Assembly (NCBI RefSeq): GCF_988242995.1
Contig: NZ_OZ547043.1
DNA length: 64,000 nt
Direction: 5' to 3' (one strand)
Made by a program: the position numbers and the translations under genes. The notes below the pieces were generated by a model. It searched no databases. It was not told the origin of the DNA and worked only from the letters and a program-made list of their open reading frames with translations. Below, piece by piece: positions 46,030 to 49,610 of this stretch. How positions within the stretch are numbered: the stretch's first letter is position 1; the number at the start of each line of letters is the position of its first letter.

Positions 46030-48012
46030 TTACCATTGATAACTCACGAAAATTTTTCCATTACGACCATCCTGTGGGATGCCTTGCGGCGACCAGTACT
46101 CTTTGTCGAAGGCGTTGCCCAATACCAGAGTAGTGGTCATACCTTTGAGCGCCTGCTGCCCTTGATAACTGACGTAGAAATCATTCACACCATAGCCAGG
46201 TTGTTTGCTGTAGCTGCTGCTGATATGTGTTGAGCGATCGGCAAACGTACCGACCCAACCAACAGAGAAGCCACTGTGAGCGATCGGAATATTCAGGGTA
46301 CTGGTAACGGTATCCGGGTTAATGCTGGAGATATATTCCCCGGTATCGGTGTCTTTGCCGCGGGTACGGTTATAGGCCACATCAAGGCTAAACAGATCAG
46401 TGGTATATTTCGTCATCACATCCCAACCCCAGATTTTGGCGTTCGGGACGTTATACGACATAGTTGTCGCCGCCGCGAAATCGACGGTCGTGGAGATGTA
46501 ATCCTTCGCTTTGGTATCAAAGTAGCTGGCTTTAAATTCCAGGGCATCATTGGACAACATCAGGTCATCAAAACGCAGCCCAAAACCGTACTCCTGAGTT
46601 TCGTTAGTTTCCGGACGTAAGTTCGGGTTTGGCACCCAATAGTTGGTATAGAAGCGACCAATCGAGAAGTGCTTAGAATCGTTATACATTTCGCCCATCG
46701 TCGGGGCGCGGAATGCCTGGGCATATGAGCCAAATAACATCAGCCAGTTGGTCGGGTTGATAGTCATCCCCGCACGAGATGACCATTTGTCAGCATCAAC
46801 ATCTTTGTAGCCGTCGCTGCTACCGCGATAACTGTCATAGCGGGTTCCGCCAAGCAGGGTAATCGGCAGATCGCGTAAGGTGATCTCATCCTGTAGCCAG
46901 CCAGAGCTAAAATCGATTTTTGCTTGCGGGAAGCCCGTCGTCGCGCCGCCCGGATGTTGTTCCTGACGATAATACTCACCGCCATATGTCAGTAAGTGAG
47001 AAGCGAAACTGTCGGCAAATAGAGTGGAACGGTTCTCCAGCCTGGCTCCTTTTGTTATCTGTTCACGATACTCGCCGGAACTCCCCGTGTTTTGCGCATT
47101 AATACGGACTTCCGACCAGTAAATTTTTGCATCTGCATTTAACCAGTCGTTGCCCTGCGGGGCGAGTTTATAAGAAAGCTGCGCATCGCGTTGAATTGTT
47201 GAACGATCAACCATCGGGTTGCTGCTATCAGAAGCTTCAACGGTCTGCGGATTTTTTGGTTCACGCGCGTCGTTGTTGTAGTAACGCACTAAACCGCTCA
47301 GAGACTGGGCTGAATCAATTTGCCAGGTCCCTTTCGCCAGCATGTTATTAATGGACTCGTCATTCGGCGTGGTTTCACCATTGCTCTGGCGTAAATCACC
47401 CCGATCGCGACTGGACCAGGCCACAATACCATCCAGATTTTCAGTTCGCCCAAACGCGCTCGCGCCTAATCCCAGGCTATGGTCCCCCGTGCCGCCAGTA
47501 CCAAAGACACGAAAACCACTACTTTGTCCTTCCTGCAATAAATCTTTTGCATCGACCGTATCGTAGGAGATCACTCCACCCAGCGCGCCACTGCCATACA
47601 GTAATGCTGAAGGTCCGCGAACAATCTCAACACGCTTGATCAGCGCCGGATCAAGAAAAGTACCATTCAGGTGTCCGGTATCCGTTCCCTGGCGAACACC
47701 ATCGACAAGAACCAGCACGCCGCGATGATCATAGCCACGCATATTTACATCCTGACCGTTGGTTCGTCCGGTACCATCAAGAGTAATTCCAGGAACATGA
47801 CGCAGCAGATCGGAGGCTGAAGTAGCCGTTTGATTTTCAGGAGCGGAAGTGTCGATGACGCTGACCATCATAGGCGCTTCGAAGGAACTACGGGCATTCC
47901 CCGTTGCCGTAACGGTCATGGTTTCAGTAGCAAAAGCAAACGTTGGCAAGGTGGCAGAAACAGCCAAAGCCAACAAACTCAAACGCAACGAGGTAAATTG
48001 CGGACGTGACAT
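46030..48012 (-). CDS. chuA: TonB-dependent outer-membrane haem/haemoglobin receptor ChuA
   Basis: 660 aa; signal peptide, TonB-box-like ETMTVTA, C-terminal ...KIFVSYQW terminal Phe/Trp beta-barrel signature. Confidence 0.92.
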   Translation of the reverse strand: MSRPQFTSLRLSLLALAVSATLPTFAFATETMTVTATGNARSSFEAPMMVSVIDTSAPENQTATSASDLLRHVPGITLDGTGRTNGQDVNMRGYDHRGVLVLVDGVRQGTDTGHLNGTFLDPALIKRVEIVRGPSALLYGSGALGGVISYDTVDAKDLLQEGQSSGFRVFGTGGTGDHSLGLGASAFGRTENLDGIVAWSSRDRGDLRQSNGETTPNDESINNMLAKGTWQIDSAQSLSGLVRYYNNDAREPKNPQTVEASDSSNPMVDRSTIQRDAQLSYKLAPQGNDWLNADAKIYWSEVRINAQNTGSSGEYREQITKGARLENRSTLFADSFASHLLTYGGEYYRQEQHPGGATTGFPQAKIDFSSGWLQDEITLRDLPITLLGGTRYDSYRGSSDGYKDVDADKWSSRAGMTINPTNWLMLFGSYAQAFRAPTMGEMYNDSKHFSIGRFYTNYWVPNPNLRPETNETQEYGFGLRFDDLMLSNDALEFKASYFDTKAKDYISTTVDFAAATTMSYNVPNAKIWGWDVMTKYTTDLFSLDVAYNRTRGKDTDTGEYISSINPDTVTSTLNIPIAHSGFSVGWVGTFADRSTHISSSYSKQPGYGVNDFYVSYQGQQALKGMTTTLVLGNAFDKEYWSPQGIPQDGRNGKIFVSYQW

Positions 48013-48040
48013 AGCGATTCTCCATGAGGAAAATAAAAAA
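48013..48040 (-). promoter_or_regulatory. FourU-type RNA thermometer hairpin sequestering the chuA Shine-Dalgarno
   Basis: mRNA 5'-UUUUCC-UCAU-GGAGAA-3' about 7 nt upstream of the chuA AUG; U-tract pairs with GGAG. Confidence 0.6.
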
Positions 48041-48300
48041 TGCTGGCTGCCTGGGTTAATACCGGGGTGGCTGGCGAAAAATAAATTTATTTAAAATTCA
48101 GAGCGATAATATTCGCCGGGTGAGTTTACAGGCGTTTATATCCCATGAAATTGCCTGGTATCTCGGCAAATACGCAAAAGCACGCCCTCTTTGTCAGGCA
48201 AAACGATATGCCCCATCAGGAGTGAAGAGCGCTGTGCGTTATCCCTTGCAAATGCTATGGTTTTGTTATCCATATGGTCGTGTTTTGTTAAGCGCGAACG

Positions 48301-48323
48301 TGATAATGAGAATTATTATCGAT
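48301..48323. promoter_or_regulatory. Fur box (tgataatgagaattattatcgat) in chuA promoter region
   Basis: Close match to GATAATGATAATCATTATC consensus, about 290 nt upstream of chuA. Confidence 0.6.
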
Positions 48324-48652
48324 CAATTTTTTATGATCAAGCTTTTTTTTAACCGCCATTAACACAATAAACAGGGGGTTATGAAACTTATCCTGCGCCC
48401 TGGAAACCACTTTGTTTTTATGGTTATTCCCCCATGACCTCATCACTAAACTTTGTCGTTAACAGTGATAATTTTCTCTTCGCTTTGCTCTGCAAGCCTC
48501 GATATCTCTGGGTTCTCAGCTTTTTCCCGCGATGAAATTTAGTCGGTAACAAGAACGTTAGCTGACGAAGCATCTTGATAAAAATCAAAAATAAATACGC
48601 TTGTAACGCCTTGCGTATTGAATCGACGGTTGTATTTCATATATAACTCAAA

Positions 48653-48685
48653 TGATAATCATGATCATTCTCAATTTGATAAGAG
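48653..48685. promoter_or_regulatory. Fur box (tgataatcatgatcattctc plus adjacent aatttgataag) upstream of chuT
   Basis: Close match to Fur consensus immediately upstream of the chuT ATG. Confidence 0.6.
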
Positions 48686-48695
48686 TTCTCATATT

Positions 48696-49610
48696 ATGCC
48701 AAGGATCATCACCAGGCCGTTTCTTTTTTCCCCACTAACGTTATGTATTTCAGCCGTGGCCTCTGCCGCGAAGACCGCGGTAAAACGAAAAAAATTGTTT
48801 ACGGCAGTACTGGCTCTTAGCTGGGCTTTTAGCGTAACGGCTGCCGAACGTATCGTGGTCGCAGGAGGATCGCTGACGGAGCTAATCTACGCGATGGGCG
48901 CTGGCGAACGCGTGGTTGGTGTCGATGAAACGACATCTTATCCACCAGAAACCGCCAAACTGCCGCATATTGGCTACTGGAAACAACTCAACAGCGAAGG
49001 CATTTTGTCACTTCGCCCGGATAGCGTAATTACCTGGCAGGATGCCGGGCCACAAATTGTGCTCGACCAATTACGAGCGCAGAAAGTCAACGTCGTCACC
49101 CTGCCGCGTGTGCCTGCCACCCTTGAGCAGATGTACGCCAACATTCGCCAACTGGCAAAAACGCTACAGGTTCCTGAACAAGGCGAGGCGCTGGTGACAC
49201 AGATCAACCAACGCCTGGAGCGAGTACAGCAAAACGTGGCGGCCAAAAAAGCCCCGGTTAAAGCCATGTTTATTCTCTCCGCAGGCGGAAGTGCGCCACA
49301 GGTTGCCGGTAAAGGCAGCGTCGCGGACGCCATTCTTTCGCTTGCCGGAGCAGAAAACGTCGCAACCCACCAGCAGTACAAAAGCTACAGTGCAGAATCA
49401 CTGATTGCGGCCAATCCAGAAGTGATTGTCGTAACCTCACAAATGGTCGATGGCGATATTAATCGGCTACGTTCTATTGCCGGAATTACCCACACTGCCG
49501 CATGGAAAAACCAGCGCATTATCACCGTTGATCAAAACCTGATTCTGGGAATGGGTCCGCGTATTGCTGATGTCGTTGAGTCTTTACACCAGCAGCTTTG
49601 GCCGCAATAA
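48696..49610 (+). CDS. chuT: periplasmic haem-binding protein ChuT (304 aa)
   Basis: Start at MPRIITRPF downstream of Fur box; signal peptide; ORF-track start 48618 would place the Fur box inside the CDS. Confidence 0.85.
   Translation: MPRIITRPFLFSPLTLCISAVASAAKTAVKRKKLFTAVLALSWAFSVTAAERIVVAGGSLTELIYAMGAGERVVGVDETTSYPPETAKLPHIGYWKQLNSEGILSLRPDSVITWQDAGPQIVLDQLRAQKVNVVTLPRVPATLEQMYANIRQLAKTLQVPEQGEALVTQINQRLERVQQNVAAKKAPVKAMFILSAGGSAPQVAGKGSVADAILSLAGAENVATHQQYKSYSAESLIAANPEVIVVTSQMVDGDINRLRSIAGITHTAAWKNQRIITVDQNLILGMGPRIADVVESLHQQLWPQ

Follow-up and report, generated by a model that had tools for sequence, protein, structure and literature searches.

The hairpin at the chuA/shuA start is very probably the published FourU RNA thermometer and closes a leader that probably derives from hemP

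The hairpin immediately upstream of the chuA/shuA start codon in a stretch of 64,000 nt from contig NZ_OZ547043.1 (assembly GCF_988242995.1), here referred to as the window, is very probably a FourU-type RNA thermometer of this haem receptor gene. The element is already known, having been published and catalogued in Rfam, and the window carries another copy of it. By analogy, the gene in this window would be expected to respond to temperature like the published copies. The features at the start of the gene are as follows, with position 1 being the first letter of the window.

46030..48012, minus strand, chuA/shuA coding sequence for a TonB-dependent haem/haemoglobin receptor of 660 aa (open reading frame [ORF] and translation)
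48041-48010, minus strand, Rfam RF02597 shuA_thermo element (cmscan), equal to nt -29 to +3, the minimal fragment sufficient for thermoregulation (Kouse 2013, PMC3660397)
48034-48017, minus strand, FourU hairpin AUUUUCC-UCAU-GGAGAAU (sequence, minimum-free-energy [MFE] fold, Rfam consensus structure, and pair probability)
48034-48028, minus strand, 5′ strand of the hairpin, AUUUUCC
48027-48024, minus strand, loop of the hairpin, UCAU
48023-48017, minus strand, 3′ strand of the hairpin, GGAGAAU
48023-48020, minus strand, Shine-Dalgarno (SD) sequence GGAG, 7 nt 5′ of the AUG and wholly within the 3′ stem strand

The minus strand at the chuA start reads 5′-...CAGCAUUUUUUAUUUUCCUCAUGGAGAAUCGCUAUG-3′, and the sequence upstream of the 660-aa ORF, which is annotated as ChuA/ShuA in matching E. 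coli genomes and starts with the ATG at 48012-48010, is ...GGCAGCCAGCAUUUUUUAUUUUCCUCAUGGAGAAUCGCUAUG. The stem contains the pairs U48033-A48018, U48032-A48019, U48031·G48020 (a wobble), U48030-A48021, C48029-G48022, and C48028-G48023, so that the four consecutive U residues U48033-U48030 face A48018, A48019, G48020, and A48021 and the GGAG lies in the 3′ strand, which is the arrangement that defines a FourU element. A previous reading of this DNA made from its letters (the sequence-only reading) had correctly placed the hairpin at 48013-48040, leaving its strand (minus) unstated, and had described a 6-bp stem with one G-U wobble. All six pairs and the single wobble, U48031·G48020, are borne out by the sequence; however, the count was low, as a seventh closing pair, A48034-U48017, is added by both ViennaRNA and the Rfam consensus, giving a stem of 7 bp.

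The same reading had likened the hairpin to the FourU thermometer of shuA/chuA, and this assignment holds. The cmscan match to RF02597 scores 60.1 bits, above the gathering score of 58 (E = 8.5e-9), spans the full model (positions 1 to 32), is identical to the family consensus at 32 of 32 positions, and includes the start codon, ending on the ATG at 48012-48010; temperature control has been published for the identical sequence. When positions 47900-48700 were scanned with cmscan at E <= 10, RF02597 was the only match, and the founding agsA FourU family was not matched. The FourU class is defined by motif and not by descent. As the motif is convergent, the missing homology to agsA is no argument against the mechanism. 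Comparison with the shuA thermometer itself (RF02597; Kouse et al. 2013, PLoS One 8:e63781) revealed the same 32-nt sequence, the same 7-bp structure, the same position at -29 to +3, and the same Fur-regulated long leader, with no detectable difference between the two.

Nucleotides -29 to +3 of shuA were reported to suffice for making reporter translation greater at 37°C than at 25°C, the mRNA level staying the same, and the 293-nt leader of UPEC chuA likewise gave more translation at the higher of the two temperatures (Kouse et al. 2013, PMC3660397). In the shuA hairpin, the stabilizing exchange U-19C leads to repression at 37°C and the destabilizing exchange C-17A to derepression at 25°C; in the UPEC chuA leader, U-19C represses and U-19A derepresses (PMC3660397). 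In a 2021 correction of this work, spliced or incorrect blot panels were repaired and repeats of the experiments were supplied. The editor who was consulted let the conclusions from the reporters stand, but according to the correction, the native ShuA western blot (Fig 1) alone is hard to interpret and cannot confirm thermoregulation (PMC8168886). In an independent laboratory, the exchange U273A caused a 2.6-fold derepression at 25°C (Sy & Tree 2022, PMC9002310). Transferred to the window, U-19 and U273 turn out to be the same residue, U48031, which forms the wobble pair with G48020. The published temperature effects are modest, being 2- to 3-fold. The computed ΔG37 values for U48031C (-8.7), U48031A (-2.5), and C48029A (-1.7), compared with -6.1 for the wild type, follow the order of the published repression, derepression, and derepression, and the published mutants therefore fit the model.

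In nearest-neighbour calculations at 20 to 60°C, the 32-nt element has the hairpin as its MFE structure, for which ΔG is -8.4 kcal/mol at 25°C, -6.1 kcal/mol at 37°C, and -5.1 kcal/mol at 42°C; the hairpin is closed at all three of these temperatures, and its predicted melting temperature (Tm) in this model lies near 78°C. The computed open fraction of the SD sequence rises from 0.0007 to 0.0025 and then 0.0047 at 25, 37, and 42°C, and the 3.6-fold increase from 25 to 37°C is of the same order as the published 2- to 3-fold effects. Folding at 25 versus 37°C had been put forward in the sequence-only reading as a way to check the thermometer. The hairpin does form, but it is predicted to be closed at both temperatures, so that the comparison does not discriminate; since no melting is predicted in the physiological range, the in silico temperature dependence is that of any hairpin. 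Hence, in silico temperature folding cannot establish thermometer function. The hairpin is, on the other hand, retained in the full untranslated region (UTR), where that reading had allowed for its loss: the core pairs have probabilities of 0.92 to 0.99 at 25 to 42°C in contexts of 323, 353, and 358 nt, the SD sequence is unpaired with a probability of <=0.02 in these full-leader contexts (323 to 358 nt), and a 306-nt leader fold contains the hairpin in its MFE as well as in its centroid structure. In one 80-nt context, its probability was only 0.4 to 0.7, with an alternative register competing.

The folding energy of the hairpin is unexceptional compared with that of shuffled sequences (z = -0.68 in a 51-nt context and -1.08 for -48 to +12). 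When 42 annotated genes surrounding the locus were ranked, in the closest complete genome, by the predicted cost of opening the ribosome binding site (RBS), chuA came fifth, with 9.6 kcal/mol at 37°C, mid-ranked genes requiring about 5.4 kcal/mol; the RBSs of 4 of the 42 neighbouring genes are equally or more occluded in silico. Conservation presents a different picture. The chu region is present in 2,236 of 5,426 complete E. coli genomes, and 2,216 of these 2,236 chuA-bearing genomes carry the 50 nt surrounding the hairpin without a single difference. The element is also invariant across five species-level lineages of Escherichia, whose adjacent leader sequences are 74 to 77% identical. Between the window and a B2-lineage strain, the start of the coding sequence is 97.7% identical and the region from -95 to -1 is 93.7% identical, with every difference lying upstream of -80, while identity in the leader from -291 to -96 is 74.1%. 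Rfam homology together with this conservation thus argues for more than chance, which the energy alone does not.

The hairpin lies at the end of a long leader, for which the following promoter features were identified.

48302..48340, minus strand, chuA promoter (promoter scan and sequence)
48340-48335, minus strand, -35 element TTGATC, 17 nt upstream of the -10 element
48317-48312, minus strand, -10 element AATAAT, overlapped by the Fur box
48320-48302, minus strand, Fur box GATAATAATTCTCATTATC (sequence)

A chuA UTR of 291 nt has been mapped by dRNA-seq in EHEC (PMC9002310), and when this transcription start site is transferred to the window, it falls near 48303, as the promoter elements also indicate, giving a leader of about 291 nt. 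The Fur box placed about 290 nt upstream in the sequence-only reading was accordingly located at 48320-48302. The long structured 5′ UTR that had been deduced from it is indeed long, but a structured nature is not apparent, as the fold of the whole 306-nt leader does not surpass the folds of shuffled sequences (z = -0.17). In the proposed mechanism, iron limitation would relieve repression by Fur, and transcription from near 48303 would produce the 291-nt leader. At its 3′ end, AUUUUCC (48034-48028) would pair with GGAGAAU (48023-48017), so that the SD sequence becomes double stranded and 30S binding is disfavoured. The stem, being short, A/U-rich, and interrupted by one U·G wobble, would lose stability on warming from 25 to 37°C (about -8.4 versus -6.1 kcal/mol), and at host temperature, the ribosome-accessible open fraction would increase severalfold, yielding more ChuA at a constant mRNA level. 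It is from the modelled energies that we infer this shift in the open fraction.

In addition to shuA, several known systems are relevant here. The chuA hairpin resembles the FourU elements of Salmonella agsA (Waldminghaus et al. 2007), Yersinia lcrF, Salmonella htrA, and B. subtilis blyA in that four consecutive U residues pair with the SD sequence, and it shares with them a short hairpin with a noncanonical or wobble pair and repression of translation at low temperature. However, no sequence homology links it to these elements, and in chuA a lone hairpin of 7 bp closes a leader of 291 nt. In Yersinia enterocolitica, the orthologous receptor gene hemR1 (69% amino acid identity) also belongs to a Fur-regulated operon and has a U tract opposite the RBS (PMC6158557). 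Unlike that of chuA, the hemR1 hairpin is located in the hemP1-hemR1 intergenic region of a polycistronic hemPR transcript with an intact hemP and has a G-G mismatch, and HemR1 is not thermoregulated (Jaworska et al. 2018, PMC6158557). A further thermometer, in the 5′ UTR of shuT, belongs to the divergent gene of the same locus, is found in the same window, and is likewise combined with Fur control (Wei et al. 2017, PMC5458455); it differs in being a single hairpin in a 42-nt UTR, in its thermometer class, and in the position of its Fur box at +1 to +19 (PMC5458455).

A comparison with other genera suggests where the long leader may have come from. A scan of a genome collection with ChuA gave 80 loci, and 73 loci from outside Escherichia were examined. 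At least 20 enterobacterial genera besides Escherichia have an intact hemP and, downstream of it, a leader of about 70 nt that hardly varies; the corresponding features of the window are as follows.

48273-48136, minus strand, leader ORF of 45 aa (MDNKTIAFARDNAQRSS...), probably a decayed hemP/hmuP (ORF list and synteny)
48042..48076, minus strand, HPRE-like C-rich motifs CGCCAGCCACCCCGG (48076-48062) and CCCAGGCAGCCAGC (48055-48042) (alignment A1)
48006..48051, minus strand, conserved extended leader element (covariance model R1, folds, and alignment row)

All 73 non-Escherichia loci have an intact hemP/hmuP gene between the Fur-box promoter and the receptor gene, encoding a protein with the sequence ...LLGxEGRVIIEHDGQHYLLRQTxAGKLILTK and usually ending 66 to 103 nt before the receptor ATG. 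No intact hemP is found at the corresponding position in Escherichia, but the layout is collinear (Fur box, hemP, intergenic region), with the start TATGGATAACA being common to the 45-aa leader ORF and hemP and with a distance of 261 nt from the ORF start to the receptor ATG, compared with 246 to 268 nt for hemP elsewhere. Citrobacter HemP and the leader ORF of the B2 lineage can be aligned collinearly by blastp (52 aa with 29% identity; E = 0.002 in a small search space), and nhmmer matched the first ~55 nt of the leader ORF to hemP with an E value of 0.011 in a tiny search space. Furthermore, six Escherichia lineages each have their own point of truncation in the leader ORF, and the Citrobacter promoter-hemP-intergenic DNA matches E. 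coli solely over the 70-nt intergenic part, with 82 to 84% identity. Taken together, the collinear layout, the shared start, the weak protein match, the lineage-specific breaks, and the confinement of the Citrobacter match to 70 nt make it probable that the long 5′ UTR represents a decayed hemP.

Several searches for hemP itself gave negative results. The 45-aa leader ORF had no Pfam match, an HMM of HemP found no match in the six-frame translation of the window, tblastn for HemP at the leader gave E values of >=0.05, and at blastn sensitivity, no hemP-like DNA was found in the 5,426 E. coli genomes. A global DNA alignment of hemP with the leader was no better than shuffles beyond the first 12 nt, although this alignment was crude and, with its ill-chosen scoring, slid off the ends, so that it is uninformative. 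No hemP is annotated in the E. coli chu locus, Shigella has been described as lacking a hemP homologue (Jaworska 2018, PMC6158557), and no paper in the literature searched describes remains of hemP ahead of chuA.

Across genera, the last 70 nt of the leader up to the ATG are strikingly conserved as GCCAGCCACCCAGG-N-CCCAGGCAGCCAGCGCUUUUC...AUGGAGAGUUGCUAUGCC. Within this region, the C-rich motifs GCCAGCC...GCAGCCAGC are near-invariant across Enterobacteriaceae (alignment A1, 68 distinct sequences) and resemble the single C. violaceum example of an HmuP-responsive element (HPRE) quoted in PMC9131926. As cited there (Amarelle et al. 2019), the HPRE lies upstream of genes for TonB-dependent haem receptors, and GCCAGCC/CAGCCAGC repeats about 30 to 65 nt from the receptor start codon would be the feature shared with the HPRE, for which no Rfam family exists. 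In most genera, the HPRE-like motifs sit downstream of hemP/hmuP; in contrast, the window has no intact cognate hemP, only the probably decayed ORF being found at the syntenic position of a HemP/HmuP regulator, and its motifs are to be regarded as a candidate HPRE. The published CyaR site (PMC9002310) also falls within 48042..48076. In strain CU37RT-2, a natural deletion of 44 bp affects the HPRE-like region.

The conserved leader extends beyond the thermometer hairpin on both sides. GGCA (48051-48048) has a possible partner in UGUC (48011-48008), which includes the UG of the AUG, and AGC (48044-48042) has one in GCU (48015-48013). In addition, in a register termed "b," AUUUUUUAU (48041-48033) can pair with AUGGAGAAU (48025-48017), a helix that is homologous to the hairpin of other genera. 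The predicted fold outside Escherichia is an extended hairpin composed of GGCA/UGCC (which covers the UG of the AUG), AGCG/UGCU, and CUUUUC/GGAGAG, with an MFE of typically -14 to -20 kcal/mol, compared with -9.6 kcal/mol in E. coli, and the predicted cost of opening the RBS is 9.6 to 10.6 kcal/mol in Escherichia versus a median of 14.6 kcal/mol (range, 9.0 to 17.9) elsewhere. As the inner helices were misaligned through loop indels in the MAFFT alignment A1, from which RNAalifold recovered only the outer GGCA/UGCC helix, a covariance-model alignment was used instead. The model, R1, was built from nine Enterobacter-type sequences and matched 78 of 79 sources exactly once, in every case at the start of the receptor gene; in the window, it matched 48051-48006 (43.4 bits; E = 2e-9) and nothing else. 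In the R1 alignment, 93.8% of cells are paired, versus 44 to 58% with slid partners, and at one pair, C-G is replaced by U-A in 6 sequences. Because this alignment was fitted to the model itself and contains few two-sided changes, R1 supports the pairing only moderately.

The R1 alignment equates the E. coli tract AUUUUUUA with its homologue GCUUUUCA in other genera and puts the 5′ strand of the published FourU hairpin, UUUUCC, where those genera have a loop; E. coli could thus form two registers. The published proximal register is favoured by the mutational data and by folding of the full leader. In the loci sampled, RF02597 reaches its gathering score solely in Escherichia; outside it, Pseudocitrobacter scored 31 bits, and 11 other loci scanned gave no match.

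The nucleotides of the hairpin have also been linked to other functions. An Hfq-CRAC signal peak lies at the chuA RBS and was connected by the authors to repression by RyhB and Esr41, CyaR, whose activation does not depend on the hairpin, pairs with a site about 15 nt 5′ of the SD sequence, Term-seq revealed a bicyclomycin-sensitive 3′ end at +271, and the region from +177 to +217, which corresponds to 48127-48087 in the window, is strongly repressive (PMC9002310). By coordinate transfer, the 3′ end at +271 is U48033, the first of the four U residues. An intrinsic (Rho-independent) terminator or attenuator was also considered and rejected, as no call was made at 48017-48041, the stem is A/U-rich, and the U run precedes the stem. 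We conclude that the Hfq, sRNA, and Rho functions coexist with the thermometer and do not replace it.

Four other readings of the element were weighed against its role as a thermometer. It is unlikely, in our judgement, that the U tract and the SD sequence act primarily as a docking and decision site for Hfq, for sRNAs (RyhB and Esr41 at the RBS, CyaR upstream), and for premature Rho-dependent termination, with the hairpin and temperature being secondary. The Hfq-CRAC peak, the CyaR site, and the 3′ end at +271 (PMC9002310) would fit such a site, as would the conservation of the flanking C-rich, G-poor stretch at 48076-48042. However, activation by CyaR is retained in U273A and at 25°C and is hence independent of the hairpin, the Rho effect is about 1.4-fold and requires +177 to +217 instead of the hairpin (PMC9002310), the terminator scan calls no intrinsic-terminator-like site at the hairpin, and point mutants that alter stem stability act as a thermometer predicts even in the 32-nt construct, which lacks the upstream sites (PMC3660397). 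The same point mutants bear on whether the operative in vivo structure is not the published 7-bp hairpin but the extended register (AGC/GCU plus AUUUUUUAU/AUGGAGAAU plus GGCA/UGUC), which also covers the start codon. That register is the MFE structure in a 57-nt context (at 37°C, the sole temperature examined there) and in the 80-nt context (at <=37°C), it is the one to which the cross-genus model aligns the window, and the C-G to U-A covariation supports it as an ancestral form. Against this, the core pairs of the published register have probabilities of 0.92 to 0.99 in the full leader, the extended register is about 4 kcal/mol less stable in the 32-nt element, and it places U48031 and C48029 in a loop, yet mutants of these residues behave as the published register predicts (PMC3660397, PMC9002310); we therefore consider it very unlikely. 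A chance hairpin without a regulatory role, for which a folding energy inside the shuffled range and the similar occlusion predicted for nearby genes could be cited, can scarcely be credited given the RF02597 match, the invariance in >2,200 genomes beside a fast-evolving leader, and the contradicting stabilizing and destabilizing mutants from two independent laboratories (PMC3660397, PMC9002310).

The remaining reading concerns the ancestry of the thermometer, and we advance it tentatively, as more doubtful than probable. It holds that the thermometer is the Escherichia-specific, weakened descendant of a HemP-gated leader of about 70 nt with HPRE-like motifs and a hairpin sequestering the SD sequence and the AUG; in Escherichia and Shigella, hemP would have decayed into the long 5′ UTR, compensating G/C to A/U changes would have softened the hairpin, and temperature would have replaced HemP. 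The intact hemP of all 73 non-Escherichia loci, usually 66 to 103 nt before the ATG, the collinear Escherichia leader with its shared start TATGGATAACA, and the Citrobacter match (82 to 84% identity) confined to the intergenic 70 nt point in this direction, as do the near-invariant GCCAGCC...GCAGCCAGC with its resemblance to the C. violaceum HPRE as quoted in PMC9131926, the R1 results (a single match in 78 of 79 sources, 93.8% versus 44 to 58% pairing, and C-G to U-A exchanges in 6 sequences), and the lower RBS opening cost in Escherichia (9.6 to 10.6 kcal/mol versus a median of 14.6). However, the HPRE assignment relies on a sequence quoted second-hand (PMC9131926), the homology to hemP is weak (nhmmer E = 0.011 and blastp E = 0.002 in tiny search spaces, with no HMM or Pfam match), and the crude global DNA alignment is no better than shuffles past the first 12 nt. 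Moreover, the covariation is sparse in an alignment fitted to the model, some hemP-bearing genera have equally weak hairpins (opening cost, 9.0 to 10.4), and the FourU-like hairpin of Y. enterocolitica hemR1 is not thermoregulated (PMC6158557). The part of this reading that concerns synteny is fairly well supported; that HemP opened the hairpin and that its loss was compensated by weakening is something we only infer. It is of note that such a descent complements thermometer function and does not exclude it.

In summary, the identification of the hairpin as the FourU thermometer of chuA/shuA confirms only that a published virulence-associated riboregulator is recognizable from sequence by a reader without tools. 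If the decay of hemP is true, it would explain the origin of the puzzling 291-nt leader and why about 80 nt at its end have stayed fixed while the remainder diverges, and if the proposed descent is true as well, the locus would offer a testable case of a protein-gated leader that turned into an RNA thermometer after the loss of its regulator. For the bacterium, the thermometer would confine synthesis of the haem receptor to conditions that are iron poor and at 37°C, as found in the host.

Within the chuA leader (48303-48013, minus strand) lies a short ORF that occupies the position at which all 73 of the 73 non-Escherichia loci compared carry an intact hemP/hmuP gene, and it shares with this small regulator gene both the start, TATGGATAACA, and the spacing. 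The features of the leader and of the divergent shuT/chuT leader are as follows.

48136-48273, minus strand: 45-aa ORF MDNKTIAFARDNAQRSSLLMGHIVLPDKEGVLLRICRDTRQFHGI within the chuA leader
48102-48117, minus strand: terminator-like hairpin, GGCGAAUAUUAUCGCU, with a U-rich tract 3' of it, within 48087-48127
48042-48076, minus strand: near-invariant HPRE-like motifs CGCCAGCCACCCCGG and CCCAGGCAGCCAGC, a short distance 5' of the receptor ATG
48008-48051, minus strand: predicted register-shifted pairing AUUUUUUAU/AUGGAGAAU plus AGC/GCU and GGCA/UGUC
48654-48695, plus strand: 42-nt RNA-thermometer leader upstream of the shuT/chuT ATG at 48696

Each Escherichia lineage has the leader ORF disrupted in its own way, and its identity between E. 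coli lineages is just 74%. As judged from these sequence comparisons, it is probably a hemP pseudogene. The terminator-like hairpin is located at the end of this remnant and falls within the +177 to +217 segment of the chuA leader, which was described by Sy and Tree as strongly repressive and needed for the Rho effect.

About 25 enterobacterial genera (loci L003 to L081) share CGCCAGCCACCCCGG and CCCAGGCAGCCAGC in near-invariant form shortly before the receptor ATG. They resemble the HmuP-responsive element (HPRE) of haem receptor leaders from alpha- and beta-proteobacteria, and E. coli keeps both despite the loss of hemP. A natural exception is E. coli O16:H6 CU37RT-2 (NZ_CP082774.1; L085), in which a 44-bp deletion bounded by TTTATTTT repeats and equivalent to ~48084-48041 has removed both motifs and the distal U-tract. 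The FourU hairpin is kept in this strain, but with U48017C, giving a 6-bp stem, and its leader is no longer detected by R1, the covariance model of the extended leader hairpin. In the predicted fold, the register-shifted pairing likewise covers the SD and some of the AUG. Folding of short stretches (57 and 80 nt) gives this pairing as the MFE structure; folding of the full leader does not.

For the divergent gene shuT, an RNA-thermometer leader of its own, opened by the Fur box GATAATCATGATCATTCTC at +1 to +19, has already been published (Wei et al. 2017). Together with the first 15 nt of shuT (48654-48710), this leader folds with just -6.2 kcal/mol (z = +0.94); it has no match among the Rfam families.

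Leader positions -291 to -96 (within 48087-48303) differ by 26% between the window and the B2-lineage loci L083 and L084, a divergence equal to that separating E. coli from E. albertii, whereas the flanking chuA coding sequence differs by only 2.3% between the same lineages. This pattern points to two old alleles of the leader or to recombination. ERIC/IRU-like repeats of ~120 bp, with Rfam V_AS5 matches below threshold, are inserted in the leader of Escherichia sp. MOD1-EC7003 (L002, 1249-1373; 44.5 bits) and in the hemP-receptor spacer of Buttiauxella (L037, 1282-1402; 31.2 bits), showing that these stretches tolerate insertions. The greater part of the "unusually long 5' UTR" of chuA is taken up by the probable hemP pseudogene.
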